A stretch of DNA of 32,000 nt from Microcystis aeruginosa NIES-843 (GTDB lineage Bacteria; Cyanobacteriota; Cyanobacteriia; Cyanobacteriales; Microcystaceae), in the NCBI RefSeq assembly GCF_000010625.1, contig NC_010296.1:3300001-3332000 (forward strand), written 5' to 3'. Below are positions 2,341-29,541 of the stretch, piece by piece. Every line of letters starts with the position of its first letter. Within the stretch, counting starts at the first letter, position 1. Below the pieces are notes generated by a model. The model did no database searches. It saw only the letters and a program-made list of their open reading frames with translations, and was not told the origin of the DNA. A program made the translations under genes and the position numbers.

Positions 2341-2403
2341 GGCCCGACAATGTTCTCAAAGGATCAACTAGAATAGCGATCGAACTAAACTAGAAAAATT
2401 ATT

Positions 2404-3057: not shown

Positions 3058-3076
3058 CCCCATGGTTATTAAAGAA

Positions 3077-3208: not shown

Positions 3209-3229
3209 AGAATAAAATTTGCTTAGATA

Positions 3230-3352: not shown

Positions 3353-3501
3353 TACAGTCTGTATCCTATCTTAACAAGATATAACCGATCTCGCCGCCGA
3401 TAGCGATCGCTAATCTGGCCGGTTGCATTGCTGTTATCTCATGCCCGATAATGCTGAAAGGATCGACTCAATAGCGATCAAACTAAACCAGAAAAATTAT
3501 T

Positions 3502-7288: not shown

Positions 7289-7312
7289 TAACAGTTATTT
7301 TTTCTGAAAAAG

Positions 7313-7339
7313 CCTCCAAGTGATTGGGGGTGTTTTTTT
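7313..7339 (+). terminator. rho-independent terminator after rplA
   Basis: Stem CCTCCAA / TTGGGGG (one G-U pair), loop GTGA, followed by TGTTTTTTT. A near copy occurs at 10565-10591. Confidence 0.6.
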
Positions 7340-7408
7340 GGGATTTTATCTATTCTAAGATCATTGATTTTCATTTTTGGGTTCTTCTATAATCAATACA
7401 GCCTGATA

Positions 7409-7590
7409 GGGAGCATCTCACTTACGCGATAAGTAATTATACTTAGCCTAAAAGCCACTCTTAATCGTGTCTTGGAACGAAATAGAGGCTTTTAAAGACT
7501 GCGTACATGGAGAATTAAAACAAGAATTACCCTCGAAAAGCCTATTTTTCCACTAAGTATTTATGCTCATTGCAAAGGTGAGATGCTCCC
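7409..7590. mobile_element. 182-bp MITE with 13-bp TIRs and 8-bp target-site duplication
   Basis: TIR GGGAGCATCTCAC at both ends. Flanked by the direct repeat GCCTGATA (7401-7408 and 7591-7598). By eye it is identical to the reverse complement of 26565-26746. Confidence 0.85.
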
Positions 7591-7667
7591 GCCTGATATT
7601 GTCCTTCTGTTAAATTTGAGGGAACTTGTACGGTTAATTGACCTTCATTGTTAACGAATGCTTCAAC

Positions 7668-7847
7668 TTAAATGGTTTTCATGTTAACATATCTCTCTTC
7701 ATTTTCTCCTATAATTTTAACGGTAGAAGCATCCTTATCGGCTAAAGATCGAGCATACTTTCCTCTGACTGCACTTTTTAAATGAGACTCCGTTAAAACC
7801 TGAGAATAATCATCTAACATTTCATCCTTTATCTTTGAGGGGATCAT
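7668..7847 (-). CDS. small antitoxin-like protein downstream of brnT (59 aa)
   Basis: Hand translation gives MIPSKIKDEMLDDYSQVLTESHLKSAVRGKYARSLADKDASTVKIIGENEERYVNMKTI*. Its ATG overlaps the reconstructed brnT stop (ATGA), as in toxin-antitoxin pairs. Family not recognised with confidence. Confidence 0.45.
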   Translation of the reverse strand: MIPSKIKDEMLDDYSQVLTESHLKSAVRGKYARSLADKDASTVKIIGENEERYVNMKTI

Positions 7848-7894
7848 TGATTACTTTGTTCGTAGATTTTTCTTTCATGTTTAGTTACTCTCCT
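7844..7894 (-). pseudogene. 3' fragment of the brnT-type toxin gene split by the IS
   Basis: Joined to 9885-10139 after removing the IS, it restores ...IRIISARRVTKHERKIYEQSNQ*, the usual BrnT/DUF497 C-terminus. Confidence 0.7.
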
Positions 7895-9884
7895 ACCCGC
7901 ATTTCTCACAAACTGAATTAAGAACCTAATTTGGAGGTTAAAAGTTGGTGTTTTTCAAAAATAAGAGAAACCCGCTTAGTTATCAAGGAATAATCTGACT
8001 AAACTAATCAAAAAATTCCTGAATTACTGGAAAAATTCCGTCAATTAGGGAAAATGTTCACGACAAAGTTAGCTGAATTTATAAGCAGCCATTTTTAAGA
8101 CTATTTAATGATCTTTGAAAACTCTTCAACTTATCCAGTTCCCGCTATCGCTTGAATTCTAGAGTAAGCTATCGCTAAAATATCTTGATAGGGACAAGAA
8201 CTGGCAATTGCGATTAAAATTCTTCTGACACTAACAGTAATTCTAGCTCCTAATTTAAGGAAATTAAGGCGAATTGTTCCCACTGTCGCTTTGGCAAAAG
8301 AAGTTTTAGCCAAACAATTTTGACGAAAAGCTTGCATTAAAACATAAGCCATTGATGACAACCAAAGTCTTAATTGATTACTCTCAAATGTCTGTGTCGA
8401 ATTCCGGTCAGCAAATAAGTCTAATTGTTGCTCTTTAATTCGATTTGACCTCTCACCTCTGGGGCAATATTTTTCAGTGTAAAGTTTAGATGGGGGAATC
8501 TTTGATGCAGGTAAAGAAGTCACAACGTGGCGAATTTTTACGCCCTCACTACCAGGACAAACTTTTGTCACCACTCTTCTTGAACGGCTCCAGGATTTTT
8601 GGGTTTGATAACATAGGGAACGATACCAAGTCGATTCTGGTACCAATTTCGCCAATTCTCCTAACTCTTCATCGGGAGAAAATAACGTCTCCATTAATTC
8701 AGTAACTGGCTGAAGTCTTTGCTCGTAATCTGCCTTAGCTTTCTCAATTACATCGGTCGCTCGTAATTTTAATTGACTATTCGTTGCCATTGCTAAAACA
8801 TAATCAACTCCTGCTTGACTTTCGCAAAATTTCATGATATCTTCACGGGAATAGGCACTATCTCCTCGTACTAATATCTGCGTATCTGACCATTTTTCTC
8901 GAATTATACCGATTATTCGCTGCAATTCTTCTAATGCTCCCCCAGCAGTATCTACATGAGAAGACCGGAGTTTAGCTACTAATAAATGATGCTCACAGAA
9001 AATATACAAAGGAGCATAACACACTCCTTTATAATAAGTATTGAAAAACGCTCCCTCTTGATTTCCATGCACTTGGTCATCGGTGACATCCATGTCTAAA
9101 ATAATTGGTTTCGGTGGCTTTTTGTAGGATTCTAGAAAGATGTCCACAAAAGCTTTTTCAATTTCTTTGGGGTTAGGCTCGATTTTATGGTAACGACTGT
9201 TCTCTTGATTGATGACTGTTTCCGGACAATATTCTAGTCGATTAATTGTACTTTTTCCCGCTAAATTTGCTTGGGCTGAGTCAATAAAATTTAGTTTTTT
9301 CAATGCTATTGCTAAAGCTGGAGCATGACGTAATTTATCATGATCATTGACATCCTCATATCCCAAAACTATCCCATAAACTCTTTGTGCGAGTAGTTCA
9401 TGAACTGAATAATCTAGATAGGATGAATTTCGATAATCTCGAAAACATTCGGCAAACCGAGCCGTTATTTTTAGCTTTTGGTCTAACTCTGCCATCAAAA
9501 TAATTCCTGCATCTGAGGTGATTTTTCCTCCCTCAAAATTAGCGATTACTTGTCTTCCATTGAGGTTTCCAAAATTTAATTGATTGAGTCGAGACTGGTC
9601 TGAACTAGGAGTCATAAACTTGACATACTTTAAATAGTTTTAATGATTAAATTATAGCAAGCTTTTGACTTCATTCTCTACTTAAAATTGAGACTTTATC
9701 AACTAATTAACCTAAAAATACGCATTTTAAATTTGTTCTTTTTTCAAGGTCTAATTGATGATGAGCTTAAGTTGAATCCTAACAACACACTGTCGTTTTT
9801 GCTACAAGGCGATCACCCAGTCAAAACCCAGATTTTGTAAGGCTTCGGGGGTTGGTGATCGTACTTTTTGTGAGAAATGCGGGT
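7895..9884 (-). mobile_element. IS1380-family insertion sequence (~1.99 kb)
   Basis: 18-bp perfect terminal inverted repeat: ACCCGCATTTCTCACAAA at 7895-7912 and its complement at 9867-9884. Flanking TCCT/CCT direct repeat (7891-7894 and 9884-9887). One transposase ORF. Confidence 0.8.
8131..9615 (-). CDS. IS1380-family DDE transposase (494 aa)
   Basis: N-terminal GRQVIANFEGGKITSDAGIILMAELDQKLKI, then ILDMDVTDDQVHGNQEGAFFNTYYKGVCYAPLYIF and ILVRGDSAYSRED. These match my recollection of IS1380-family signatures. Confidence 0.88.
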   Translation of the reverse strand: MTPSSDQSRLNQLNFGNLNGRQVIANFEGGKITSDAGIILMAELDQKLKITARFAECFRDYRNSSYLDYSVHELLAQRVYGIVLGYEDVNDHDKLRHAPALAIALKKLNFIDSAQANLAGKSTINRLEYCPETVINQENSRYHKIEPNPKEIEKAFVDIFLESYKKPPKPIILDMDVTDDQVHGNQEGAFFNTYYKGVCYAPLYIFCEHHLLVAKLRSSHVDTAGGALEELQRIIGIIREKWSDTQILVRGDSAYSREDIMKFCESQAGVDYVLAMATNSQLKLRATDVIEKAKADYEQRLQPVTELMETLFSPDEELGELAKLVPESTWYRSLCYQTQKSWSRSRRVVTKVCPGSEGVKIRHVVTSLPASKIPPSKLYTEKYCPRGERSNRIKEQQLDLFADRNSTQTFESNQLRLWLSSMAYVLMQAFRQNCLAKTSFAKATVGTIRLNFLKLGARITVSVRRILIAIASSCPYQDILAIAYSRIQAIAGTG

Positions 9885-10139
9885 CCTAGCACTAATGATT
9901 CTGATGTTTTCTTGTCTTTCAGCATGAACAAATAAAAGCAAGCGGTTTTGAATAGAATAACCAATTGTCAAAAAACGATCTTCTAAGATTGAATGAGTAG
10001 GATCATCTAAAGTCAAAGAATAGGTATCTTCAAAGACAGTTTTAGCCTCATTAAAAGAAATATCGTGTTTTCTCAGATTTATCTTAGCTTTATCTTCATC
10101 CCATTCAAAATTAGTCGTCACCATCTCAATTATACACAA
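9885..10139 (-). pseudogene. 5' part of the BrnT/DUF497 toxin gene interrupted by the IS
   Basis: FEWDEDKAKINLRKHDISFNEAKTVFEDTYSLTLDDPTHSILEDRFLTIGYS...IRIISAR is the DUF497 pattern. The track ORF (9813-10139) continues into the IS end (TRISHKKYDH...), which is not native sequence. The start is Met at 10139 or 10124. Confidence 0.75.
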
Positions 10140-10496
10140 TAAATAAAATAAGTGGTATAAAAATCGCCCACCCTACTATGGTAAACCTTTAGTTAACTAA
10201 AGTGCGCTCGCCTTTGGCTAGATACTTTCGGGAGCGCTCTATCTTGATCTTTATAGATGTTGGAAAAAAAACAATAAATTTGTGATACTGTTATCATTTT
10301 GACAAGTTATTGATGCTCTTTCTCAAGAAGATCGTCTATGATTAGCAACAAAATTAGAACAAAAGAAACAAAAACAAGAACCTTATGCTCGCTCAGATTG
10401 GGAAACCACAAAAGCACGAAGAACCACCACAGACGGCCAAGAGAAGAACGAACTGAACAATTAATGAATGCTTGTTTCCCTCATCTTTCTGGTGCA

Positions 10497-10591
10497 ATTA
10501 ATTGGGAATTCTGGGCCGATCGCACCGGGATCGTTCACGTTCAATTTGCTAAAGCTTCCAAAGGACTCCAAGTAATTGGGGGCGTTTTTTT
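10497..10591 (+). repeat. duplicated, internally deleted rplA 3' fragment plus terminator copy
   Basis: 10497-10558 matches rplA 7053-7110 (GGAATTC-GGGCCGATCGCACCGG-ATCGTTCACGTTCAATTTG-TAAAGCTTC). 10565-10591 matches the rplA terminator at 7313-7339. About 200 bp between the two matches is missing. Confidence 0.8.
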
Positions 10592-10681
10592 GGCTTGATC
10601 GCCCGATTGATATAGAATCAAAAGGCTACACTCAAGATTAATCGCTTGAACTATTCTCTTGTATCTGTTCTTAGAGCCAGC

Positions 10682-18704: not shown

Positions 18705-20348
18705 CTAAGCATGGGGTGAACGTAAAGCTTGACCTAAACGAGTTAAGCCTTGGGAACAGTCAAAACGATCGAGATGTACTTCAATAAATGATAGGCGATC
18801 GATGTTACCCTGGGCAATCGATAAAGCCTTTTCTAATTCCCCTTCTGTCCCGACTTGACAACTCCAACTTTCCCCGTTAAATACTGCTGGTAATTGGTGA
18901 TATTTCCACGGTTGTAGATCATTATAAATATTATCCTGAATTACCCGCTCGATCGTGTAACCGTCGTTATTAATTAAAAAGATAATTGGATTGAGATGGT
19001 GACGGATAATTGTCGAAAGTTCTTGGGCGGTCATTTGAAAAGCACCATCACCCACAAAGACGATAGGACGAGTATTGGGTGCGGCAAAAGCTACTCCTAA
19101 ACAGGCGGGAATTGAATAACCAATAGAGAGATAAAATGCTTGACCGATAAAGTCGGTTTTTTGGGGCATTAATAAATCAATTGTGGCAATAATTGCGTCC
19201 CCTGTATCAGAAATAACAAAAGATTCTTGAGCAATAAAATGATTCATTCGCTCATAAAAACGAGCATTAGTTAATTTTTGCTCTGGCACGGGGATGAATT
19301 CTAAATTCTTCAATTCGACCGCGGGTTTAATCTCTAGTGTAGCCGCTTCTTTGTGACTTAGCTTATTAATTAAACCCTCGATAAAATCCCCTAGGAATAC
19401 TGGTTGATAGAAGTGATGTTTAATTTTTATCTTCTCGGAATTGGCATTAATCAAATTATTGGGATTTAAATTAGCCGTAAATCCGCCTAAATTCATATCG
19501 GACATAATCGCCCCTAAACAGAGGACACAATCGGCATTTTCCACCCGTTGACTAACGTATTCGCGACTTAATGCCCCCACATAAGTGCCGATAAATTGCG
19601 GCTGCATTTCCGAAATTGACGACTTACCTAAAATAGTGGTGGCTAAGGGATAACCCGTTACCTCTAAAAGTTTCAGCAACTTATCCTGGAGTTTAAACCG
19701 ATGGAATTCTACCCCTGCTAAAATAATTGGTTTTTCCGCTTTTTCTAATAAAAAAGCCGCTTCTTCAATGGCTTCTTCTAAAGCGGCGGCATCCGTGAGA
19801 TTATCGGTTAAATAAATTGGCTTTTCTGAGGGGATACAGGGACGATAGACTAGATCCCGGGGAATTTCGATATACACGGGACGTTTGTGATGCAAACAAG
19901 CGGCTAAAGTTTGATCGATTTGACTGGCTGCTTGGGCGGAATTAGTGAGAATAACCGAGGCAACCGTGACTTTTTCCATGATGGACAATTGCAGATTATA
20001 ATCGCCCGTGGTGTGGTGTAATAATAAATTATCCCGGCGAATCGAGCGATCGGAAGCCCCACTAATTACCACCAAGGGAACTCTTTCAGCGTAAGCACCG
20101 ACCACAGCATTAACCAGGCTAAATCCCCCGACTCCGTAGGTGACACAGACAGCACCCATCCCTTTGACTCGCGCGTAGGCATCGGCGGCATAACCCGCGT
20201 TAAGCTCATTACAGGTACAAACTAATTCGATCGGACTTTCCACCAAAACATCCATCAAATCGAGGACATAATCCCCCGGCACCCCGAAAACATGATTAAC
20301 CCCTAAATTATGGAGACGCTGGCATAAATATTCGCCGATCGTGATCAT
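18705..20348 (-). CDS. thiamine-diphosphate-dependent 2-keto-acid decarboxylase (indolepyruvate/pyruvate decarboxylase family)
   Basis: MITIGEYLCQRLHNLGVNHVFGVPGDYVLDLMD at the N-terminus, plus the ThDP-binding motif GDGAFQMTAQELSTIIRH...IIFLINNDGYTIE. Confidence 0.85.
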   Translation of the reverse strand: MITIGEYLCQRLHNLGVNHVFGVPGDYVLDLMDVLVESPIELVCTCNELNAGYAADAYARVKGMGAVCVTYGVGGFSLVNAVVGAYAERVPLVVISGASDRSIRRDNLLLHHTTGDYNLQLSIMEKVTVASVILTNSAQAASQIDQTLAACLHHKRPVYIEIPRDLVYRPCIPSEKPIYLTDNLTDAAALEEAIEEAAFLLEKAEKPIILAGVEFHRFKLQDKLLKLLEVTGYPLATTILGKSSISEMQPQFIGTYVGALSREYVSQRVENADCVLCLGAIMSDMNLGGFTANLNPNNLINANSEKIKIKHHFYQPVFLGDFIEGLINKLSHKEAATLEIKPAVELKNLEFIPVPEQKLTNARFYERMNHFIAQESFVISDTGDAIIATIDLLMPQKTDFIGQAFYLSIGYSIPACLGVAFAAPNTRPIVFVGDGAFQMTAQELSTIIRHHLNPIIFLINNDGYTIERVIQDNIYNDLQPWKYHQLPAVFNGESWSCQVGTEGELEKALSIAQGNIDRLSFIEVHLDRFDCSQGLTRLGQALRSPHA

Positions 20349-20602: not shown

Positions 20603-22588
20603 ATGATTTTTACTGAATTAGTTTTGCAAAATTTCGGTCCCTACGCCGGTCGTCAAGTGATTAATTTACGTCCCGAAAAAGACAACAATCCCTGTCCGAT
20701 TATCCTTTTGGGAGGCATGAATGGCGGCGGTAAAACTACTTTAATGGATGCGATTCGTTTGGCTTTGTACGGTGCGCGGGCAAAGTGTTCTACTCGCAAT
20801 AATTTAAGTTATGCCGAGTTTCTCAGTCAAGCAGTTAATAATCAAGCTTCCCTCATCGATCAAGCTAGAATTGAACTGGCTTTTGAACATCTAGTTAATG
20901 AACAATGGCGACAATATCGTATCGTTAGATACTGGACAAAACAGCCCAAAGATGGTAGGGATACCCTCGGTATTTTAGATGAAGATTGGCCCGATCCCGC
21001 CTTAGCTAATACTTGGGATGAATATATTGAAACTTTATTACCTTTGGGTATTTCTAACCTCTTTTTATTTGATGGGGAACAGGTAAAAGAATTGGCAGAA
21101 CAGGATGTACCTCCTGACAGCGTTAAGGATTCGATGCAGACTTTATTAGGGTTAGAATTAGCGGAAAGATTAGCAGTTGATCTCGATATCTTAGCTAGTC
21201 GCAAGCGCCGGTTATTAGCAGCAGAAAATGAACTGGCAACTATTGAAGCTATCGAGAAAAAATTAGCTCAGTACCAAGAAGATTTAGAATTGGCTAGACA
21301 AGAGATGGAAACTCAACAAAAAAATTTAGATTTGGTTAGAAATGATTTTGATGCAGTCTCGGATAAATTTCGCATTGATGGCGGAAAAATTGCCGCCGAA
21401 AGAAGTCAATTAGAGAGCAGAAAAAAGGATTTAGATAAAAAGTTAGATAAACAGAGAGAGTATTTAGGTCAATTGGCGGGGGAATTTTTACCATTAAAGT
21501 TAATTTTTCCTCTCCTAGAAGCGGCTAAAATTCAGGGAGAAAAAGAGCTAAAATTTCAATCGTCTCAAGTCGCTCAATCGGTTTTAGAATCCAGAGATAA
21601 AAAGTTACTTGCTTATTTAGAACAACTGAATTTAACTTTAGAACAATTAGACAATATTAGAGAATTTTTACAGCAAGAAAATCAGTTTTTAGCTGAGGAT
21701 AGCGATTCTTTGATTACTCCTTACTTAGATTTAGACGAGGAGGCGATCAAGTTATTAAATCGAGTCTTAACCCATCAACTACCGGCACAAATTAACCTCG
21801 CTCATCAAGCAATAGAACAATTAAGAAATCTGGAAGCTGACTTAGATAATTTAGAGCGAGAATTAGCAGTAGCAGCCTCTCCCGAAGAATACGAAACCCT
21901 GAGTAATAACTTAAAAACCGCTCAGAAAAAGTATCTAAATGCTCAAGCGGAATACGAGCAAAGCCACAAAAATTATGAGGAAATCAAAAAGAAAATTGAG
22001 AAAACTAAAAAAGAATTATTTGCCTATAGTGAGAAAGCTTTAGAATCGCAAAGTAACGAACATATCGTCAATGCTATTGTCAAAGCACAGCAAACTTTAA
22101 AATTATTTAAAGAACGCTTAACTTTAAAAAAATTAAATAGATTAGAGGGAGAAGTGGCGGAATGTTTTCGTTATTTATTGCATAAGTCCGATCTGGTGCA
22201 GAAAATAGCGATCGATGCTGATACTTTTGGTCTATCTCTCTTTGGTCCCGATGGACAAAATGTGCCTAAACACCGTCTTTCTGCCGGAGAAAAACAACTA
22301 TTAGCGATCGCTTTTTTGTGGGGATTAGCGCGAGTCTCCGGACGAGATTTACCCATCGCTATCGATACACCCCTCGGACGTTTAGATTCTTCCCATCGCC
22401 ATAATTTAGTTGAACGTTATTTTCCCGCCGCTTCCTCTCAAGTCATCCTCCTTTCTACCGATACAGAAATTGGACAAAATGAGCTACTCTTATTAGAAGA
22501 ACAGGAAGTAATCGCCAGAAAATACCTGCTAGAATATAATTCCCAACAACGTCAAACTACTATTCACCCCGATCGCTACTTTTGGTAA
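20603..22588 (+). CDS. dndD: DNA phosphorothioation-system SMC-like ATPase DndD
   Basis: MIFTELVLQNFGPYAGRQVINLRP...PIILLGGMNGGGKTTLMDAIRLALYG (Walker A), a long central coiled coil, and C-terminal LSAGEKQLLAIAFLWGLARVSGRDLPIAIDTPLGRLDSSHRHNLVERYFP...VILLSTDTEI. This matches the DndD pattern I recall. Confidence 0.85.
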   Translation: MIFTELVLQNFGPYAGRQVINLRPEKDNNPCPIILLGGMNGGGKTTLMDAIRLALYGARAKCSTRNNLSYAEFLSQAVNNQASLIDQARIELAFEHLVNEQWRQYRIVRYWTKQPKDGRDTLGILDEDWPDPALANTWDEYIETLLPLGISNLFLFDGEQVKELAEQDVPPDSVKDSMQTLLGLELAERLAVDLDILASRKRRLLAAENELATIEAIEKKLAQYQEDLELARQEMETQQKNLDLVRNDFDAVSDKFRIDGGKIAAERSQLESRKKDLDKKLDKQREYLGQLAGEFLPLKLIFPLLEAAKIQGEKELKFQSSQVAQSVLESRDKKLLAYLEQLNLTLEQLDNIREFLQQENQFLAEDSDSLITPYLDLDEEAIKLLNRVLTHQLPAQINLAHQAIEQLRNLEADLDNLERELAVAASPEEYETLSNNLKTAQKKYLNAQAEYEQSHKNYEEIKKKIEKTKKELFAYSEKALESQSNEHIVNAIVKAQQTLKLFKERLTLKKLNRLEGEVAECFRYLLHKSDLVQKIAIDADTFGLSLFGPDGQNVPKHRLSAGEKQLLAIAFLWGLARVSGRDLPIAIDTPLGRLDSSHRHNLVERYFPAASSQVILLSTDTEIGQNELLLLEEQEVIARKYLLEYNSQQRQTTIHPDRYFW

Positions 22589-22646
22589 GATTATGACCGA
22601 GATAAATTCCCAAAAAATTCTCGCCCAATTAACTTGAGACATTGAA

Positions 22647-22666
22647 TCAGTTATCAGTTATCAGTT
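22647..22666. repeat. TCAGTTA heptamer tract (2.9 units) in the dndD-dndE spacer
   Basis: TCAGTTA TCAGTTA TCAGTT. It is the reverse complement of the TAACTGA x5 tract at 29507-29541. Confidence 0.6.
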
Positions 22667-22779
22667 CACTGTTTACCGATCACTGAAAAAAAGCTCCCCA
22701 CTTCCCACTCTCCTATTAAACAGGATTGAGAATGACTAACTATTTTCTCATCAGTCAGAGCGAGGTAAAATTATAGATT

Positions 22780-23178
22780 ATGGAATCACCGATCGAACGT
22801 TTTCGACTATCTCAAACCGCCAAAGATAGCCTAATAAAATTAAAACGCTACACCAAAATTGACCAATGGAATATCCTCTGTCGTTGGGCTTTTTGTCGTT
22901 CCCTTGCTGAACCGAGTCTCCCCTCTCCCGTTCCCATTCCTGCCGATAGCAATGTAGAATTATCCTGGAAAGTATTCGGGGGAGAAATGGCCGATATTTT
23001 CTTAATTGCCCTCAAACAACGTTGTCATCAAGACGGATTAGGAACCGATAAAGAAACTCTAACTCAACAATTTCGCTTACATTTACATCGCGGGATCGGT
23101 TATCTTGCTGGGGATACCAAGCTAAAAAAAATCGATAATTTAATCGAATTAGAGAGAGAAAGTCTCAGAGAATCTTAA
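22780..23178 (+). CDS. dndE: DNA sulfur modification protein DndE
   Basis: RFRLSQTAKDSLIKLKRYTKIDQWNILCRWAFCRSL...NVELSWKVFGGEMADIFLIALKQRCHQDGL...FRLHLHRGIGYL follows the DndE pattern I recall. Located downstream of dndD. Confidence 0.75.
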   Translation: MESPIERFRLSQTAKDSLIKLKRYTKIDQWNILCRWAFCRSLAEPSLPSPVPIPADSNVELSWKVFGGEMADIFLIALKQRCHQDGLGTDKETLTQQFRLHLHRGIGYLAGDTKLKKIDNLIELERESLRES

Positions 23179-23198
23179 TCAAGAATGATCTGTTTTCA

Positions 23199-23245
23199 GG
23201 GGGAGCGCATCTCAAACGCTATTGACAATTGGCCAATTTTGTGAT
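23199..23245. mobile_element. solo MITE end (truncated)
   Basis: GGGGGAGCGCATCTCAAACGCTATTGACAATTGGCCAATTTTGTGAT matches the reverse complement of 2294-2340, the right end of the 2118-2340 element. Similarity stops at 23245, 39 bp before the cassette start codon. Confidence 0.65.
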
Positions 23246-23284
23246 GGTATTTAAAAGAGGGCGGCTATCGGGGGATGAGAAAAA

Positions 23285-24796
23285 ATGGAAAATTTAATCA
23301 AGGAAGCACTAAGCCATCGAGCGATTAATCATCCGTATTTACTGGCTTTAGAAAAAGGAGAATTTCAACATATTGATGAAGTTCTGACAGACTTTGCCAG
23401 TCAATACGGAGCTTATAGTGACTGGTTTTCCCGTTATTTAACAGCAGTAATATCAAAGCTAGAAAATCCCACTCATCGAAATCACCTGCTGAAGAACTTA
23501 GCTGAAGAAAACGGACATCTACACCATGAAGATCTCGAAGCAATCCGTAAATTAAGTATTAAGGACGAGTGGGTACAGGAAATTCCTCACCCACAGTTAT
23601 TCAAGCGTTTTCAAGAAGCGATGGGAGTAGATAGCACGCAAACGCCTTGTGTTGAAGTGGAAATCTGGCGTGAATCATTCTTATCGCTGCTCCAGAATGG
23701 AAGTTCACTCCAAGCTATTGGAGCGATAGGTTTAGGGACTGAATCTGTTGTTAAATTTATCTACAAACACATTATTGAAGCGATCAAAAAACATACATCA
23801 TTATCCTTGCAGCAATATGTATTTTTTCCTTTACATACAGAAGTGGAGGATGAACACAGCTTAACTTTAGTTGAGATTGCTAAAGAATTAGCCAGTGAAA
23901 GCGAACAGGCTGTTCTGGAATTACGGAAAGGAATGTTAAAAGCCTTAAATCTACGTGCTGCTTACTGGGACAATATGTATGAACGTGCGTTGGCACTAGA
24001 TAAATCTTTGACCTCATCAGACCAACTCAAGATTGTTACGCTTTTCACTAAAATGATTAAAGGCAAAAAGCTGTCTAATCAGGAACAGGAACTTTTATTG
24101 CATCAAATCAATGACGTGCGTATTGGATTGACGGAAGACTTATCTACTGTTCCAGTGGAAAAACTACTACTCGGATTGAGTTCACTTTTGCTATACGGGA
24201 TGCAAACGGAAAAGCACAAGGAAGAAGTTCTGAACTTGTTAAATTGGCTTGAAAATCCATCTGGTGAATGCCAATGCTCTCAAACAATATTAAGGCTTGC
24301 TTCACAACTTTACCATGATTTTCAAACGATGCGTCTCGGAGGCTTGACCGAAAAAATTAATGAACAAAAAAGCTTGACTCATGTGCAAGAAGGTAAAGAG
24401 CTTATTTCAACAATCAGCGCCAGCAACTTAGAAGCCTTATACAACAATAAGGTTGATAAACTCAATATTGATTTTAACGTATTTCGCCTGCCATTTGATC
24501 TAGAAGTTTTAGATGCACGCCTAGTTATAGTCAAGCCAGGAAAGGCGAATGAAATGCACAGACACGCACATGAAACCGTATTTGTATTTCTTCAGGGTCA
24601 AGGAAAAGTTATTGTTGATCAATACGAAAACGAGGTCGAACCAGGTACTTTTGCTGTTATTCCCCGTTGGTGTGTGCATCAATCTGTGAACTTAGGAGAA
24701 GAAGAGCTAATTTTTCTGGCGATAGCTGATTTTGGATTAACTGGTAAAAGTTTTATGGGTAATTACTTACACAGTGCTAGACTAAAACAAAATTAG
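23285..24796 (+). CDS. fusion protein: heme-oxygenase-like di-iron oxidase (HDO) domain plus C-terminal cupin (503 aa)
   Basis: aa 1-240: AINHPYLLALEKGEF...DFASQYGAYSDWFSRYL, E75-x-x-H78 (AEENGH), E153 (GTES), and H184-x3-E188-x2-H191 (HTEVEDEH). This is a four-helix di-iron ligand pattern of the 'iron-containing redox enzyme' family. aa ~400-485: cupin motifs G419-x5-H-x-H-x-HE and G454-x5-P-x-W-x2-H465-x3-N. Confidence 0.7.
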   Translation: MENLIKEALSHRAINHPYLLALEKGEFQHIDEVLTDFASQYGAYSDWFSRYLTAVISKLENPTHRNHLLKNLAEENGHLHHEDLEAIRKLSIKDEWVQEIPHPQLFKRFQEAMGVDSTQTPCVEVEIWRESFLSLLQNGSSLQAIGAIGLGTESVVKFIYKHIIEAIKKHTSLSLQQYVFFPLHTEVEDEHSLTLVEIAKELASESEQAVLELRKGMLKALNLRAAYWDNMYERALALDKSLTSSDQLKIVTLFTKMIKGKKLSNQEQELLLHQINDVRIGLTEDLSTVPVEKLLLGLSSLLLYGMQTEKHKEEVLNLLNWLENPSGECQCSQTILRLASQLYHDFQTMRLGGLTEKINEQKSLTHVQEGKELISTISASNLEALYNNKVDKLNIDFNVFRLPFDLEVLDARLVIVKPGKANEMHRHAHETVFVFLQGQGKVIVDQYENEVEPGTFAVIPRWCVHQSVNLGEEELIFLAIADFGLTGKSFMGNYLHSARLKQN

Positions 24797-24816
24797 TGCA
24801 AATTTTATCACGTTAG

Positions 24817-25584
24817 ATGGGTATGAAAGCAACACAAGAAACCAAAAAACTTTACGACGAAAGCGCAGGAGACTGGAAACGAGTAGAACCGATTTTGCTT
24901 TCTGATTACTCCGCACGTCCCTTTGTCATTGATTTATGTGAACCGATTGTCAACAAGAATATATTAGATCTAGGCTGTGGGGAAGGTTATGTAGGAAGAG
25001 AGTTAATTAACCGAGGCGCTCAATCTGTTCATGGGATTGATATTTCATCGCAAATGATCGAGCAGGCCTTGATTCAAAAAAACGAGCATCAGATTATTAA
25101 TGCTTCCTATGAAGCTGGTGATATTCGTGATTTTGCGGTCACTGAGTCCGAACAATACGATTTAGTTCTGGCTATGTTTCTGTTCAACTACTTAAATGTT
25201 TCAGAAACTATTAGCACGATGCAGAAAGCCTACCAACTTTTGAAATTCGGTGGCTATTTCCTGTTCGCCGTCCCCCATCCCTCTTTACCTTTTCTGAAAA
25301 AAGATAAGTTTCCCTTTTATTTTAAACCGAAAGCTGGCTATTTTTCCGGACGCAATCAATTATTCCCCGGTGAGATTTGGCGCCGAGATAGAAAAGCCGT
25401 CGCCGTGCAATGTGTTCATAAAACTATGGAAGATTACTTCACATCTCTTCGTTTAGCAGCCTTCACAAAAATGCCAGAAGTTTATGAACTAAAAATTAAT
25501 CAGGAACATTTAGAACTAGACCCAGAATTTTTTACTCCGCTCATTGACCTTCCCCTTCACGTTGCTTTCAAAATTCAAAAATGA
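24817..25584 (+). CDS. class I SAM-dependent methyltransferase (255 aa)
   Basis: Motif I ILDLGCGEGYVG, post-I HGIDIS, and motif II/III YDLVLAMFLFNYL...LKFGGYFLFAVP. Starts 20 nt after the upstream gene. Confidence 0.85.
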   Translation: MGMKATQETKKLYDESAGDWKRVEPILLSDYSARPFVIDLCEPIVNKNILDLGCGEGYVGRELINRGAQSVHGIDISSQMIEQALIQKNEHQIINASYEAGDIRDFAVTESEQYDLVLAMFLFNYLNVSETISTMQKAYQLLKFGGYFLFAVPHPSLPFLKKDKFPFYFKPKAGYFSGRNQLFPGEIWRRDRKAVAVQCVHKTMEDYFTSLRLAAFTKMPEVYELKINQEHLELDPEFFTPLIDLPLHVAFKIQK

Positions 25585-26498
25585 TTAGACCAATTTTTGA
25601 TCCTAATATTTCATTACTGACTTGGAAAAAATTGCCTGATCCTTCTCAACTATTTTTTCATGTACCAGAATCATTAGTCTCAGATTTACTAAAAAGAAGC
25701 AATCACAAATGGCTTGAAAAACCCAACGAAATAGGACAGGAAACAGTCAATGAAAATCTTGATTTTTTCCTACCATTTCGTGAGAAATTGCTCCAGAAAC
25801 CAGGCATAATTATTTTCCGATTAGAACCGGAATTAACAGAAATAGAAATGCGGTTAATTTATGCTTTTATTTCTCGCATTTTTGGACTGCTAAACCACCG
25901 CTATGGCTATTTTTTTGATGTAATCGATCGAGGAATGGATTACACTAAAAAAGCTATACCCGTTTCGATGACGAATGCAGAAACTGGCTATCATACCGAT
26001 AGTACAGCCAAAAACTACTTCCCTGATTTTGTTGGCTTACTGTGTCTTGCTGCCGCGGATGAGGGAGGAGATTCCCTGGTAGTAAACGCCGCCAATTTGT
26101 ATCAATATTTCTGGCAACACCATACAGACCTAGTTCCCTATCTTTACGAACCTTTGGCGCGCGATGTGATTACACCTGGAGAGATTAATTCTCAAGAAGC
26201 TATTCAAAAGAATAATTTCCCCTTATTCTCAGCCGATTCTCAGGGTCTGGTTTTTCGTTATATGCGGTACTGGATTGAAGTCGCTTACTCCAAACTGGAA
26301 ATAGCGCAACCGGAAGCTATCACAAAAACACTCGACATCATCGACGACTTTTTTTCAAAACCAGAAAATACAGTCCGCTTCAAAATGAAAAAAGGTGATG
26401 TATTTTACATTAATAATCGCTTTTTATGCCACAATAGAACCGCTTTTAAAAATTCAGGAAAACCCCGACAGATGGTCCGTAGTTGGATTAACCTTTAA
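25581..26498 (+). CDS. TauD/TfdA (clavaminate-synthase-like) Fe(II)/2-oxoglutarate oxygenase (305 aa)
   Basis: H-x-D facial-triad motif in GYHTDST, a distal His in FLCHNRTAF, and an Arg near the C-terminus (RQMVRSW). ATGA overlap with the methyltransferase gene. Confidence 0.78.
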   Translation: MIRPIFDPNISLLTWKKLPDPSQLFFHVPESLVSDLLKRSNHKWLEKPNEIGQETVNENLDFFLPFREKLLQKPGIIIFRLEPELTEIEMRLIYAFISRIFGLLNHRYGYFFDVIDRGMDYTKKAIPVSMTNAETGYHTDSTAKNYFPDFVGLLCLAAADEGGDSLVVNAANLYQYFWQHHTDLVPYLYEPLARDVITPGEINSQEAIQKNNFPLFSADSQGLVFRYMRYWIEVAYSKLEIAQPEAITKTLDIIDDFFSKPENTVRFKMKKGDVFYINNRFLCHNRTAFKNSGKPRQMVRSWINL

Positions 26499-26564
26499 AC
26501 AAAATATGTCCAAGGGAGAAAGTAAACCGGTCAAGGTACCGAGTACAATGACCTCAGCTTCCTT

Positions 26565-26746
26565 GGGAGCATCTCACCTTTGCAATGAGCATAAATACTT
26601 AGTGGAAAAATAGGCTTTTCGAGGGTAATTCTTGTTTTAATTCTCCATGTACGCAGTCTTTAAAAGCCTCTATTTCGTTCCAAGACACGATTAAGAGTGG
26701 CTTTTAGGCTAAGTATAATTACTTATCGCGTAAGTGAGATGCTCCC
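26565..26746. mobile_element. 182-bp MITE, second copy (inverted relative to 7409-7590), 8-bp TSD
   Basis: TIR GGGAGCATCTCAC at both ends. Flanked by the direct repeat GCTTCCTT (26557-26564 and 26747-26754). Confidence 0.85.
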
Positions 26747-26782
26747 GCTTCCTTGTCATCCCTTCAGGGGTTCAAACTCACC

Positions 26783-28297
26783 TTAAAAAACTTTCGGTCG
26801 GCCTAAAGTAGTGATATAGATAACTGCTTCATCGGAGGGAATTCCTAACACTTCATTAACTTGATCATCAAAAAAACCACCGATACCACTAACCCCTAAC
26901 CCCAGATGAATAGCCGCTAAATTTAATCTCTGTCCCAAATGTCCCGCATCTGCATGAAGATAACGATAAACTCGATCGCCATATTTAGCCACTGCTTTTG
27001 ACAGATCCGCCGTATGAAAAACCACAGCGGCCGCATCCCGTCCCAAATCCTGACCTAAACAGAGATAATGTAACTCTTGCCGGAAATTTTTAAAGCGAAT
27101 TTGCCGCAATTCTTGGGCTTTAGGAGCATAATAATAACAGCCTTCCTCTAATCCAGTTACTGCCGAAACAGCGATAAAAGTTTCCAATAAATCTAGATCG
27201 AAATAATCGGGATTGGGATCGAGATTTTGGCCGGCATAATCTTGGGGTTGATAGGTGAAATGCAGCAGCGCTCGCAATTCGTCTAAACTGAGACTAGCAC
27301 CACTATAAGCGCGGGTAGATCTGCGTTTAAGAATCGTACTTTCGAGAGCGATTAAATCTTCCCCCCAATTGACGGGACGGGATGTCACGGAAACTTTTAG
27401 ACAAAAAGGAAAATTATATTTATCTTCCCAATTAGAGGGGGTAACAGTTGCTTCTATCTTCTCATCTGTAGCTATGATAGTGGCTCGGTGTAGGGAGTTT
27501 AATAATTCTCCCTCGGGAATTTCGGGATAAAGAGTCGTGGTTGCCGAAGGGAGTGCCGTGGTACTATGGGGGAGATTTTGCCGGATATTGAGCAGATCTG
27601 CCAAAGGAATCACCGTCATGACACTTTCCTTCTCGGAATCGAGATAAAGCAATTCATTCATCTGGATATCGTTAAAACCACCGATTAAATGGGCGCGATA
27701 GTCATTAATCGAGGCTGATAACTCAATATTGCCTAATAAATGCCCTGTATCGAGGAAAATACGCCGATAAGCTCGATCTTCGTAGCGCCAAGCGGACCGA
27801 TAAAAAATGGCACTGGTAACTACAGCGATATCGGTATTTTCTAAAACAGGATTCCAGAAACAAGCAGATTGTAGGTTGGTCCAGACATCACTTTCCCAGA
27901 ATAAAAGCAGCGAGTGACTTTGACCTTGGTAACTGTAGAGACCGGCGGGTAAAAATTCCGTGCCACGGGAGATCAGATAGACCTCGGCGGGGTATAATCC
28001 ACCAGCAGAGGGTGCGGAACGTAGGTACAAGGGACTCCCCATAGTGGCGATTTTGGCAGTTAACCCATAGCTACAGCCCAAAATTCGCGATATACGTCGC
28101 CAAAAGTCTCCTTTTTGGGGAACTGTTTGACGGGAGAGGTAGGGTTTGAGATCGAAAGTCTGACCGATTTTGTATTCTTTGAAGGGATGGGGTTGTTGAC
28201 TCCAATCAAGACCTTTACTTTTTGAGGCGATCGTCTGGGGGTCGTATTTGGTCCGCTCGTGGTAGTATTGGGCGATCGAGATTGGCTGATCTGGCAT
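26783..28297 (-). CDS. SagB/ThcOx-type dehydrogenase with tandem nitroreductase-like domains (504 aa)
   Basis: N-terminal YYHERTKYDP...QPHPFKEY, RSAPSAGGLYPAEVY in domain 1, and RRSTRAY...LHADAGHLGQRLNLAA...GVSGIGGFFDD in domain 2. Confidence 0.8.
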   Translation of the reverse strand: MPDQPISIAQYYHERTKYDPQTIASKSKGLDWSQQPHPFKEYKIGQTFDLKPYLSRQTVPQKGDFWRRISRILGCSYGLTAKIATMGSPLYLRSAPSAGGLYPAEVYLISRGTEFLPAGLYSYQGQSHSLLLFWESDVWTNLQSACFWNPVLENTDIAVVTSAIFYRSAWRYEDRAYRRIFLDTGHLLGNIELSASINDYRAHLIGGFNDIQMNELLYLDSEKESVMTVIPLADLLNIRQNLPHSTTALPSATTTLYPEIPEGELLNSLHRATIIATDEKIEATVTPSNWEDKYNFPFCLKVSVTSRPVNWGEDLIALESTILKRRSTRAYSGASLSLDELRALLHFTYQPQDYAGQNLDPNPDYFDLDLLETFIAVSAVTGLEEGCYYYAPKAQELRQIRFKNFRQELHYLCLGQDLGRDAAAVVFHTADLSKAVAKYGDRVYRYLHADAGHLGQRLNLAAIHLGLGVSGIGGFFDDQVNEVLGIPSDEAVIYITTLGRPKVF

Positions 28298-28351: not shown

Positions 28352-28384
28352 AGAAAACGGGTTTCTGAAAGAAACCCGTTTTCT
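28352..28384. repeat. perfect 14-bp-stem hairpin (copy 1)
   Basis: AGAAAACGGGTTTC TGAAA GAAACCCGTTTTCT. A sister copy at 29296-29328 differs by one compensated base pair. Confidence 0.75.
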
Positions 28385-28391
28385 AAATACT

Positions 28392-28489
28392 CCCCTCTCC
28401 CACCCCCCCCTGCTCTACGATGTCGGGTAGGGTTGATTTATGAATCAACCCTACCCTTGATAAGGGGGGTGGGGGGTTGGGGGTGAGGG
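28392..28489. repeat. nested C-rich / G-rich palindrome with G-quadruplex-type tract
   Basis: The outer arms are CCCCTCTCCCACCCCCCCC and GGGGGGTGGGGGGTTGGGGGTGAGGG. The inner part is a perfect hairpin, GGGTAGGGTTGATT TATG AATCAACCCTACCC (28425-28456). The CGATGTCGGG core recurs near 30943. Confidence 0.7.
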
Positions 28490-29295: not shown

Positions 29296-29328
29296 CAGAA
29301 AAGGGGTTTCTGAAAGAAACCCCTTTTC
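29296..29328. repeat. perfect 14-bp-stem hairpin (copy 2)
   Basis: AGAAAAGGGGTTTC TGAAA GAAACCCCTTTTCT. It has the same loop and following AAATA as copy 1. The C-G pair of copy 1 is replaced here by G-C, with both arms changed. Confidence 0.75.
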
Positions 29329-29366
29329 TAAATAATACCGTTACAATGTTTGAGAGGTCTGAGTGG

Positions 29367-29506: not shown

Positions 29507-29541
29507 TAACTGATAACTGATAACTGATAACTGATAACTGA
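29507..29541. repeat. TAACTGA heptamer x5, abutting the Uma2 start codon
   Basis: Five perfect tandem units end 1 nt before ATG 29543. Confidence 0.85.

Follow-up and report, generated by a model that had tools for sequence, protein, structure and literature searches.

In the Bes pathway, an Fe/2OG enzyme and then a heme-oxygenase-like di-iron oxidase (HDO), BesC (4-chloro-allylglycine synthase), act in sequence on lysine. CADD is, like NePabS, a self-sacrificial p-aminobenzoate (pABA) synthase, in which Tyr27 is the sacrificed residue and Lys152 the amine donor. GrbD and GrbE, the pair linked to the graminine diazeniumdiolate, are SznF homologs within NRPS siderophore clusters. Among characterised HDOs, SznF alone has a cupin domain, and it acts after a methyltransferase; HDO function follows phylogeny poorly (PMC13108848). 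MboB is a dedicated HDO redox partner (PMC13185094), and members of the DfmD clade of oxygenases are found in operons with SAM N-methyltransferases and use N-methylated substrates (PMC9296572). Here, we compare these systems with a three-gene locus in a 32,000-nt stretch of the Microcystis aeruginosa NIES-843 genome, hereafter the window.

The operon and its three proteins

The three ORFs lie on the forward strand of the window and are NIES-843 BAG03500-03502: gene 1 (23285-24796; 503 aa, an exact match to BAG03500.1), gene 2 (24817-25584; 255 aa, class I SAM methyltransferase) and gene 3 (25581-26498; 305 aa, BAG03502.1, TauD-superfamily Fe(II)/2OG oxygenase). Direct reading of the sequence gave a 20-nt space between genes 1 and 2 and an ATGA overlap between genes 2 and 3; a second in-frame ATG of gene 2 at 24823, the start used by most strains, yields 253 aa. 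The sequence-only reading had taken the trio as one operon with no NRPS/PKS, transporter or regulator, and this was upheld. It had also assigned no described metabolite to the operon; in agreement, the public names of the three proteins are all generic and indicate no product, a literature search for the UniProt ID, the RefSeq ID and the probable NIES-843 locus tags, which were estimated from the numbering of the protein accessions, returned no paper, and a March 2026 HDO review contains no enzyme that matches the operon. The domain calls were right as well, and the expected Pfam families were all recovered.

The HDO domain of gene 1 (aa 1-240; 23285-24004, forward strand) matched Pfam Haem_oxygenas_2 at aa 36-224, and its predicted di-metal ligands are E74, H102, E153, H184, E188 and H191. 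In an alignment of 34 HDO sequences (A1), E74, E153, H184 and H191 were invariant and H102 was at least 90% conserved, while a further alignment (A2) had E74, H102, E153, H184 and H191 invariant; position 188 was D or E with at least 90% conservation. All six ligands are thus conserved, and they aligned with E81/H88/E142/H174/D178/H181 of CADD in a profile comparison, which excludes a TenA/PqqC-type protein lacking the ligands. The AF2 model of the domain had pLDDT >90, and Foldseek placed it close to BesC (TM 0.78-0.82) and CADD (TM 0.77-0.81). The HDO-family profile likewise gave CADD as the top match (5.5e-12), together with BesC (E=7e-10), suggesting that these two are the nearest relatives.

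The HDO is followed by a helical domain (aa ~245-378; 24017-24418, forward strand) that had no Pfam match and corresponds to the N-terminal half of a standalone cupin partner of ~253 aa. When modelled from a deeper alignment, it reached pLDDT 90-98, and the top 50 Foldseek matches were all cupin-type, with ~90-155 columns aligned and no evident solved homolog of the helical domain among them. The Cupin_2 domain (aa ~380-485; 24422-24739, forward strand; Pfam match at aa 413-480, E=3.5e-14) has a predicted mononuclear metal site. Its invariant motif in alignments A3/A5 was N-E-x-H-x-H-A-H-E-T ... I-P-R-W-x-x-H-x-x-x-N; in at least 90% of the sequences the last His is followed by Q. Foldseek matched the domain to TM1459-type metal cupins (TM ~0.8). 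Microcystis gene 1 is an HDO fused to the 'helical domain plus cupin' protein, because in Bacteroidota, as in Undibacterium loci, the cupin is encoded by its own, adjacent gene; the standalone partner formed at least 185 clusters. The role of the cupin could be regulatory instead of catalytic.

Gene 2 matched Methyltransf_25/31/11/12, carries LDLGCGEG as motif I in its translation, and had the ToxA N-methyltransferase as its best PDB match (1.4e-14). Its best matches are generic, and O-, S- or C-directed methylation could also be its activity. Gene 3 matched TauD (1.6e-24) and has an intact HxD...H triad, with H138-x-D140, H284, R296 and R300 invariant. Comparison of its family profile with the PDB retrieved FrbJ, aligned full length (1.8e-25), 7n7v (4e-25), BBOX (1.8e-14) and TmpA (3.5e-9), suggesting that it belongs to an FrbJ/BBOX-like clade of TauD-superfamily oxygenases; it also weakly resembles TMLH, BBOX and hydroxylases of Lys/Arg.

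Recurrence of the module across phyla

Operons with an HDO, a methyltransferase (MT) and a TauD-family gene were found in Bacteroidota, Planctomycetes, Verrucomicrobia and Lentisphaerae, and the order HDO-MT-TauD was kept in loci L002, L003, L006, L085, L087 and L091-94 and in many Bacteroidota loci. Neither the MT nor the TauD gene occurred without the other (75 loci). HDO-MT fusions were seen in P0004 and L071, and the filamentous cyanobacteria Microseira and Brasilonema encode single [EF-hand]-HDO-MT-TauD polypeptides of 800-1250 aa that are orthologs of all three proteins of the window and whose genes stand alone in their genomes. Aquatic heterotrophs also carry the module without biosynthetic neighbours. 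The genes therefore travel jointly across phyla and are fused into one polypeptide in some lineages, and HDO-MT-TauD is a conserved module; this repeated occurrence of one set of enzymes, encoded in operons or as a fused protein, points to a real self-contained pathway. The operon is a good genome-mining lead.

The cupin is a more variable component. In a locus sample biased to the sequences most like gene 1, 13 of 30 well-flanked loci had the HDO with a cupin and no MT/TauD nearby, and another 10 of the 30 had HDO-MT-TauD with no cupin; therefore, the roles of the cupin and of MT/TauD may be alternative, not sequential. Some HDO relatives have an N-terminal domain with the canonical cNMP phosphate-binding cassette (GE...RSA), and because a cNMP-binding domain or EF-hands fill the position of the cupin in other lineages, gating of the output by second messengers is suggested. 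A gene for a PaaE-like FAD/NAD/Fe2S2 reductase was present in seven loci, all from Bacteroidota, and a PabC-like class IV aminotransferase was close to some loci.

A probable old rather than recent transfer

The sequence-only reading had treated the flanking MITEs, a low GC content and the lack of GCGATCGC as signs of horizontal acquisition. The right MITE is indeed complete (26565-26746, 182 nt, with 45-nt imperfect terminal inverted repeats, in the intergenic region between gene 3 and the sagB-like gene), and with its 8-bp target-site duplications GCTTCCTT (26557-26564 and 26747-26754) it spans 26557-26754. A second, inverted copy at 7409-7590 is 100% identical and adjoins an IS4-type transposase gene (8131-9615). 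However, the MITE was missing, leaving an empty site, in L007, a strain otherwise collinear with the window at 95.7-97.7%, and had no match in L007-L014 or L015; it is a strain-specific insertion, and in another strain the same family was inserted within gene 1. The left element, a MITE-like fragment of 49 nt that lies between gene 1 and dndE (23197-23245, a 96% inverted match to 2293-2341), was present in every Microcystis locus examined (L007-L014 and L020), so it was not recently inserted and is fixed among these loci. The flanking MITEs are incidental to the operon.

The supposed AT-rich contrast with the flanks did not hold. The trio has 38.0-39.8% GC and GC3 of 0.33-0.36, compared with 38.1% for DndD, 41.1% for DndE, 45.0% for the SagB-like gene and a window mean of 41.7%, and its codon-usage likelihood fell inside the range seen for the other genes of the window. 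The cassette does lack GCGATCGC, but there are only six HIP1 sites in 32 kb, and by our own estimate none would be expected in 3.2 kb about half the time. Moreover, the dndE-trio-sagB-like context was common to 9/9 Microcystis loci examined, and clusters at 90% identity had similar sizes for the trio (434/453/553) and for neighbouring chromosomal genes (461/534). Because of the empty site, the native composition, the shared context and these cluster sizes, the argument for recent acquisition fails, and the trio is largely a conserved Microcystis operon of native composition.

An older horizontal origin is supported. By blastn, the window shared exactly 23235-26494 (3.26 kb, forward strand) at 93.5% nucleotide identity with L015, a 'Dolichospermum' MAG contig whose flanking genes are unrelated, which marks this segment as the unit that has moved, and a neighbour-joining tree of the HDO, drawn without support values, nested Microcystis within Bacteroidota. 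Based on this nesting and on the foreign context of the unit in L015, the operon lineage would have reached Microcystis long ago from freshwater Bacteroidota-type donors. Within Microcystis it is chromosomal, with native composition and vertical inheritance at one locus.

Proposed pathway and alternatives

We lean, with moderate confidence, towards the view that the trio encodes a conserved oxidative pathway, complete in itself, for the tailoring of a small polar metabolite of common occurrence. This metabolite would most likely be an amine or amino acid. As judged from sequences and models, the components are catalytically intact: the HDO has its 3-His/3-carboxylate site and the cupin its metal-binding motif, and they are joined by a SAM methyltransferase and an FrbJ/BBOX-like oxygenase. 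No other dedicated pathway genes are needed. We infer which step follows which, and what reactions the HDO and the cupin carry out, solely from family resemblance. The methyltransferase would first act on a heteroatom, probably a nitrogen of the substrate, as gene 3 neighbours FrbJ/BBOX/TmpA/DfmD and the DfmD clade acts on N-methylated substrates; the Fe/2OG enzyme would then hydroxylate or desaturate a carbon close by, and the HDO would perform the key O2-dependent step, either N-oxygenation or C-C/C-N scission, using cellular reductants or, in some Bacteroidota, the dedicated PaaE/MboB-like flavin-Fe2S2 reductase. Finally, the cupin, separate in Bacteroidota and fused in Microcystis, would complete or edit the oxidation at its mononuclear metal site.

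Two more specific schemes are unlikely. In the first, as in SznE/SznF, the MT would N-methylate Arg, a guanidine or an amine, the HDO would N-hydroxylate it, the cupin would rearrange the result into an N-nitroso, N-N or diazeniumdiolate-type product able to release NO, and the 2OG enzyme would add a hydroxyl. The precedent of a cupin-bearing HDO that follows a methyltransferase is found in SznF alone (PMC13108848), and the identical HDO-to-cupin order, the repeated pairing of both, split or fused, and the HDO-MT fusions are in line with it. The relationship to SznF/SznE proposed earlier was nevertheless not borne out for either domain: SznF was absent from the phmmer (E<=10) and HDO-family profile matches (E<=10), from the cupin-profile matches listed (60 of 67) and from the top 50 Foldseek matches of either model. 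Furthermore, CADD and BesC are C-C cleavage enzymes, the helical insert of gene 1 is unrelated to SznF, and many modules have no cupin at all. The second scheme, which we hold to be just as improbable, has the HDO cut a C-C/C-N bond of a methylated, hydroxylated lysine-like amino acid, giving formaldehyde, an amine or CO2 plus an alkene or shortened acid, with the cupin processing the fragment or product. In structure and in sequence, BesC shares the place of best neighbour, the Bes order of Fe/2OG enzyme and HDO fits, and gene 3 has the weak resemblance to TMLH, BBOX and hydroxylases of Lys/Arg; against this, the NCBIfam BesC equivalog scored 26.7 with a cut-off of 500, and, unlike the Bes cluster, the operon has no PLP enzyme, no halogenase and no partner of the ATP-grasp type.

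A catabolic or scavenging route for an onium compound or phosphonate seems very improbable. Here, as in TmpA/TmpB or PhnY*/PhnZ, the 2OG enzyme would hydroxylate the heteroatom-adjacent carbon, and the di-iron HDO would replace the HD-domain oxygenase in cleavage. Gene 3 has its best characterised relatives in FrbJ, TmpA, BBOX and DfmD, which use phosphonates or trimethylammonium substrates, its further invariant R194, R226, R229 and R286 suggest, in our own interpretation, an anionic substrate, and the heterotrophs carrying the module without biosynthetic neighbours would agree. On the other hand, a SAM methyltransferase would be unusual in such a route, no transporter, pho-type regulator or pepM/phn gene is linked, and gene 3 departs from BBOX/TmpA in its architecture and aromatic cage. 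We give little credence to a folate-related CADD/PabS-type pABA synthase with accessory enzymes: CADD is the top profile match, fol_rel_CADD (NCBIfam) scored 60 bits and the PabC-like aminotransferase lies near some loci, but this score is far under the family cut-off of 200, CADD Tyr27 and Lys152 align with the invariant Leu19 and with Ile163 of gene 1, and pABA synthesis offers no role for the MT, TauD and cupin partners. Least credible is an action on DNA, together with the dnd genes next door (DNA phosphorothioation) or a defence system, since, although in every Microcystis locus the operon begins 107 bp after dndD-dndE, on the same strand, and PADLOC matched gene 2 to the MTase-domain protein mad2 (7.8e-21), the module never adjoins dnd genes outside Microcystis, genes 1 and 3 had no PADLOC match, and the mad2 match is limited to the generic SAM-binding domain.

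Comparison with known systems

The tailoring pathway that we favour thus resembles several systems in part. Gene 3 has the HxD...H triad and the Arg that binds 2OG in common with FrbJ (the FR-900098 hydroxylase), the 'predicted hydroxylase' 7n7v and BBOX/TmpA/DfmD, and like DfmD-clade genes it adjoins a SAM methyltransferase gene (PMC9296572). Identity to this group is low, however, and gene 3 has neither the phosphonate-biosynthesis context of FrbJ nor the N-terminal domain of BBOX/TmpA, with the BBOX aromatic cage only partly kept (Y177->Y108, W181->F112, Y194->S129). The HDO shares with BesC and CADD/NePabS the seven-helix fold (TM 0.77-0.82) and the ligand positions, but differs in its 18-19% identity, scores far below the NCBIfam cut-offs, other partners, a stretch of ~22 extra residues that separates the first Glu ligand from the first His and, for CADD, the absence of both reactive residues. 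MboA/MboB, the mangotoxin acetylenase and its reductase, likewise pair an HDO with its own reductase of the NAD(P)H/flavin/Fe2S2 type, as the seven Bacteroidota loci appear to do; in Microcystis there is no reductase, ATP-grasp ligases and peptide substrate logic are lacking, and MboA was absent from the sequence and fold matches. GrbD/GrbE presumably place cupin and HDO in separate adjacent genes, like the Bacteroidota form of the module, which differs in having no SznF homology and no NRPS. Lastly, SznF, the N-nitrosourea synthase of streptozotocin biosynthesis, offers with SznE an HDO and then a metal cupin in one chain working with a SAM methyltransferase, yet gene 1 shows no detectable sequence or top-ranked fold homology to it, lacks its N-terminal domain and carries an extra ~135-aa helical domain between HDO and cupin, and the MT here has an obligatory Fe/2OG oxygenase partner. 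The link to SznF is therefore analogy only, not kinship. The gene 1 fusion is lineage-specific, and because its halves are separate in Bacteroidota and joined via the additional helical domain in Microcystis, the HDO-cupin fusion arose independently of SznF.

Organization of the Operon and Its Neighbors

The three genes make up a real and conserved oxidative tailoring pathway, centered on a heme-oxygenase-like di-metal oxidase/oxygenase (HDO) and amenable to experiment. The three open reading frames were confirmed on the plus strand at 23285-24796 (gene 1, 503 aa), 24817-25584 (gene 2, 255 aa), and 25581-26498 (gene 3, 305 aa), and the 20-nt gap between genes 1 and 2 and the ATGA overlap of genes 2 and 3 were seen directly in the sequence. 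The domains predicted by the sequence-only reading were recovered by both Pfam and NCBIfam: an HDO and a cupin in gene 1 (Haem_oxygenas_2 at aa 36-224 and Cupin_2 at aa 413-480 in Pfam), a class I SAM methyltransferase in gene 2, and a TauD-type oxygenase in gene 3. The products of genes 1 and 3 were exact matches to BAG03500.1 (B0JNS0) and BAG03502.1, respectively. No function for the trio was found in papers, database names, or curated families, and literature searches with DUF3050, the estimated NIES-843 locus tags, the UniProt identifier, and PDB 7N7V found nothing.

Pfam and NCBIfam identified dndD and dndE upstream of the trio and a SagB-type double nitroreductase downstream, on the opposite strand. 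The latter, a tandem SagB/ThcOx-type nitroreductase-fold dehydrogenase of 504 aa (26783-28297, minus strand), was the invariant downstream neighbor of the trio in Microcystis, and no RiPP precursor or cyclodehydratase adjoined it in the window. DNA modification was among the alternatives considered for the trio; any involvement with the dnd genes or a defense system was rejected because no dnd linkage was found outside Microcystis, and PADLOC returned no match for genes 1 and 3. No riboswitch or other RNA that might point to the ligand was found in the window (E ≤ 0.1) or in nine diverse loci, and scans for promoters and terminators were uninformative, with fewer matches than in shuffled sequence. 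As for the upstream genes themselves, dndD and dndE (20603-23178) had no adjacent dndA, dndB, or dndC, the 'DndD' protein was matched in PADLOC best by PbeC (929 bits) and second by DndD (762 bits), and a TPP-dependent 2-oxoacid decarboxylase was encoded upstream of dndD on the other strand (18705-20348).

Predicted Catalytic Sites of the Three Proteins

The HDO half of gene 1 showed the seven-helix heme-oxygenase-like fold, modeled by AF2 with a pLDDT above 90 over aa 1-240, and scored 48.6 bits against the Haem_oxygenas_2 cut-off of 28.9. Its best Foldseek matches were BesC (TM 0.78-0.82) and CADD (TM 0.77-0.81), and the HDO family profile searched against the PDB recovered CADD (5.5e-12), BesC (7e-10), and NePabS (1.5e-5). 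The predicted 3-His/3-carboxylate set was present as E74, H102, E153, H184, E/D188, and H191, and these six positions mapped one-to-one onto CADD E81/H88/E142/H174/D178/H181 in the family profile. In an alignment of 23 HDO sequences, E74, H102, E153, H184, and H191 were invariant and D/E188 nearly so; in another of 34 sequences, four predicted ligands were invariant, with H102 kept in at least 90%. Synthesis of pABA was considered in light of the match to CADD. However, the CADD/PabS enzymes depend on an amine-donor Lys152 and a sacrificial Tyr27, and gene 1 has neither: Tyr27 is replaced by Leu19, itself invariant, and Lys152 by Ile163; therefore, this is not a self-sacrificial pABA synthase of that kind. 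The dedicated models also scored low, with 60.3 against a cut-off of 200 for TIGR04305 (CADD/PabS) and 26.7 bits against a cut-off of 500 for the BesC equivalog NF042919 (NCBIfam).

The cupin half (aa 380-485) was modeled confidently by AlphaFold, scored 52.7 against the Cupin_2 cut-off of 27.2, and was closest in Foldseek to TM1459-type small metal cupins. It contained two Cupin_2 motifs with predicted His/Glu metal ligands, PGKANEMHRHAHET and GTFAVIPRWCVHQSVN. The H, H, H/E, H ligand set was kept without exception across the family, within the invariant motif N-E-x-H-x-H-A-H-E-T ... P-R-W-x-x-H. Between the HDO and the cupin lay a well-folded helical domain, remodeled with 38 homologs, for which no solved relative was evident among the top 50 Foldseek matches.

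Gene 2 encoded a generic class I methyltransferase (Methyltransf_25, 69.4 bits; Rossmann-like, with the GxGxG SAM motif as LDLGCGEG at aa 51-58), with the N-methyltransferase ToxA as its best solved relative. In gene 3, an Fe(II)/2OG oxygenase of the TauD/CSL group, the HxD...H facial triad and two Arg residues for 2OG binding (H138, D140, H284, R296, and R300) were invariant among 20 sequences, and the triad Asp indicates an enzyme of the hydroxylase type and not a halogenase. The gene 3 family was closest to FrbJ and PDB 7n7v (about 1e-25), followed by BBOX, TmpA, and DfmD. Phosphonate or onium catabolism was also considered as an alternative, and the comparison with the BBOX, TMLH, and TmpA enzymes bears on it. 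These enzymes have an N-terminal Zn-binding (DUF971-type) domain, whereas gene 3 matched their catalytic domain only, and Pfam found only TauD and CsiD in it. The equivalog models of this clade gave scores of 49 against cut-offs of 400-415, and the aromatic cage with which BBOX holds trimethylammonium was incomplete in gene 3 (Y177 to Y108, W181 to F112, and Y194 to S129).

Conservation of the Module across Bacteria

The HDO clade was small: a search of 1.84 billion proteins at E ≤ 1e-30 gave 85 representatives, and the same partners were almost always linked to it. The order HDO-methyltransferase-TauD was kept in Planctomycetes (Fuerstiella), Verrucomicrobiales, Lentisphaeria, and Phycisphaerae, as well as on marine metagenome contigs and in many Bacteroidota, and the methyltransferase and TauD genes were apart in none of the 75 non-Microcystis loci. 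In the homologous protein P0004 and at locus L071, the HDO and the methyltransferase were fused. Moreover, in the filamentous cyanobacteria Microseira and Brasilonema, proteins of 800-1250 aa joined HDO, methyltransferase, and TauD in one chain, and those of 960-1254 aa had 2-4 EF-hands ahead of the three domains (at loci L088, 10001-13138, and L089, 10001-13123; proteins P0306, P0310, P0331, and others). These tri-domain fusions were orthologous to all three window proteins, and their genes stood alone amid housekeeping and ion-channel genes. A eukaryotic origin of the EF-hand fusions was rejected, as their sources were Microseira, Brasilonema, and related cyanobacteria. The conserved operon and the fusions constitute strong Rosetta-stone evidence that the three proteins form a single self-sufficient pathway whose substrate is a common metabolite, and in the EF-hand fusions the whole pathway appears to exist in a calcium-sensing form.

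Other N-terminal additions to the HDO were cNMP-binding domains with the canonical phosphate-binding cassette GEIAFVDQRPRSATV, found in Planctomycete and Verrucomicrobial loci (L003, 4125-5351; L006, 10001-11248; and L091-L093). In L091-L093, the trio was preceded, at about 0.6 kb and in the same direction, by a PhyH-family oxygenase gene; in L003, this gene lay on the opposite strand, 2.5 kb upstream and separated from the trio by another gene. This neighbor recurred in one marine lineage only. Freshwater Bacteroidota and Undibacterium carried two neighboring genes instead, one for the HDO alone (~245 aa) and the other for a 'helical + cupin' protein (~253 aa); therefore, gene 1 of Microcystis is a lineage-specific fusion. 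The ~253-aa protein formed at least 185 clusters, none of them annotated. The cupin is thus a partner protein of the HDO, and gene 1 is a second, independent invention of the HDO-cupin fusion. A PaaE-like FAD/NAD/2Fe-2S reductase was encoded within or beside the HDO-cupin-methyltransferase-TauD cluster in seven Bacteroidota loci (L037, 10244-11308; L039-L041; L043; L044; and L045), and 21 loci had a GNAT (Acetyltransf_3) akin to the one in IleRS-GNAT fusions. The RidA, amidohydrolase, and creatininase neighbors in Fuerstiella did not recur at other loci, and synteny with glutathione peroxidase and BrxC was limited to one Flavobacteriales group.

Stable Chromosomal Setting of the Operon in Microcystis

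The MITEs (miniature inverted-repeat elements) described at both ends of the cassette were confirmed. The right one (26565-26746, 182 nt) had 45-nt terminal inverted repeats and an 8-bp TSD (GCTTCCTT), an identical inverted copy within the window (7409-7590), and a third copy in L020, the chromosome of Microcystis sp. BLCC-F210. The left fragment (23197-23245, 49 nt) matched 2293-2341 and was fixed in all strains examined. The acquisition built on these elements and on a low GC content did not hold, however, being ruled against by an empty site, native composition, and a fixed locus. From dndD to past the SagB-like gene, a second Microcystis genome (L007) was collinear with the window, at 95.7-97.7% identity, and had an empty site in place of the right-hand MITE. 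The trio had 38-40% GC and a GC3 of 0.33-0.36, values that the other genes in the window also span, and its codon usage was ordinary. Only six HIP1 sites occurred in the 32 kb, so that their absence from the 3.2-kb trio, taken earlier as a foreign mark, carries no information. The order dndE-trio-sagB-like was found in nine of nine Microcystis loci examined, and the trio proteins fell in 90%-identity clusters of 434-553 members, similar in size to those of neighboring chromosomal genes (461 and 534). Composition, location, and cluster size thus all differed from what marks a recent genomic island. In BLCC-F210, a 182-nt MITE of 97% identity (L020, 7127-7308; TSD AATACGGAG) had entered gene 1 after about codon 42, giving a premature stop, and the HDO-cupin gene is thereby knocked out naturally in this strain. 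Collectively, the empty site, the fixed locus, and the BLCC-F210 insertion indicate that the MITEs are incidental and that the operon is stably established on the Microcystis chromosome.

An older horizontal origin of the operon is nevertheless likely from sequence comparison, because the Microcystis clade was nested within Bacteroidota in a neighbor-joining tree of the HDO domain, drawn without support values, and because the segment 23235-26494 was exactly that shared, by blastn, with a Dolichospermum sp. MAG contig (L015, JBJUHT010000110.1) at 93.5% nucleotide identity with unrelated flanks. This contig carried the trio with the Microcystis-type fused gene 1, between prfC/RidA/Uma2 genes on one side and a DNA methyltransferase on the other, and its HDO branched within the Microcystis clade. 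Trio proteins were present in several Dolichospermum MAG accessions. The L015 copy reflects either a recent Microcystis-to-Dolichospermum transfer or mis-binning.

Other repeats were observed in the window. Within 7051-10602, direct repeats of 60 nt (7051-7110 and 10499-10558, 92%) and 32 nt (7319-7350 and 10571-10602) enclosed a low-GC stretch that held the second MITE copy and an IS4-type DDE transposase gene (8131-9615); the arrangement resembles a ~3.4-kb mobile-element insertion in which a flank has been duplicated. A segmental duplication at 1834-3769 comprised families of 300, 213, and 73 nt, spaced ~1.1-1.3 kb and 95-97% identical, in which every 73-nt copy bore a HIP1 site. Mutually inverted (ATCAGTT)n heptamer tracts flanked the region at 22646-22673 and 29508-29541, and a 43-nt palindromic hairpin repeat (AGAAAACGGGTTTCTGAAAGAAACCCGTTTTCT...) occurred at 28352-28394 and 29297-29339.

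Proposed Pathway

The comparisons showed four intact catalytic units that are inherited together and fused in some lineages. Methylation would come first, probably on nitrogen, by analogy with the DfmD clade, which is linked to a methyltransferase (PMC9296572), and with the ToxA/PMT-like matches. The Fe/2OG enzyme would then hydroxylate, the di-iron HDO would carry out an oxidation, either N-oxygenation or C-C/C-N scission, and the cupin may finish or edit it. For the HDO step, the nearest HDO relatives favor scission by analogy; HDO function, however, tracks sequence poorly (PMC13108848). The combination of HDO, cupin, and methyltransferase would in turn favor an SznF-like N-oxygenation. Synthesis of DMSP, which in filamentous cyanobacteria involves a DsyGD-like methyltransferase-decarboxylase fusion, was rejected, as DsyD is a PF04115 domain (PMC11306096) unrelated to the trio proteins.

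The fusions to Ca2+- and cNMP-sensing domains hint that production is regulated, a rare trait among tailoring oxygenases. It is improbable, on our reading, that HDO-methyltransferase-TauD is a previously unrecognized second-messenger-gated module that makes a small reactive or signaling molecule from a primary metabolite on demand. Filamentous cyanobacteria would then gate it through EF-hands, and Planctomycetes and Verrucomicrobia through a cNMP-binding domain, whereas Bacteroidota and Microcystis have the metal cupin instead. Candidate products would be an N-oxygenated or N-nitroso compound from which NO is released, an alkene or amine that is volatile, and an antimetabolite, with the co-encoded GNAT giving protection from it. 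The module would have been exchanged between Microcystis and Bacteroidota of the same freshwater habitat.

For the tailoring pathway itself, the comparative case for completeness is unusually strong, given the conserved operon, the HDO-methyltransferase and HDO-methyltransferase-TauD fusions, and the dedicated cupin and reductase partners. The module was found throughout the bloom-forming genus Microcystis and was common in freshwater Bacteroidota from lake metagenomes; therefore, its product could matter for bloom chemistry or alga-bacterium interactions. For genome mining, the trio is a strong lead from a genus of ecological importance; the single tri-domain gene of Microseira or Brasilonema offers a defined construct, and BLCC-F210 a natural knockout.

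Comparison with Known Systems

In SznF, an auxiliary helix contributes a further Glu to give a 3-His/4-carboxylate site, and the substrate of the enzyme, N-omega-methyl-L-arginine, is supplied by an SznE-type N-methyltransferase. Homology of gene 1 to this enzyme, suggested by the sequence-only reading, was not borne out by phmmer, family profiles, or Foldseek on two models. No SznF chain was found by phmmer or by the HDO family profile at E ≤ 10, by the cupin profile in the 60 of 67 matches listed, or by Foldseek in the top 50 matches of either gene 1 model; SznF structures exist in the PDB (6VZY and 6XCV, cited by a 2026 HDO review). SznF is laid out as an N-terminal domain, an HDO, and a C-terminal cupin, whereas gene 1 begins with the HDO at residue 1 and places the helical domain before the cupin. 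The likeness is in domain composition only, and SznF-type chemistry should not be assumed for the trio. The anatomy first described was right, and the SznF homology and the MITE- and GC-based acquisition were wrong.

The 2026 review describes about a dozen validated HDOs, none with the architecture of the trio. The more than 10,000 HDOs include only about a dozen with a known reaction, and nearly each of these has brought new chemistry. MboB was the first dedicated HDO redox partner (PMC13185094), and the PaaE-like reductase of the module parallels it.
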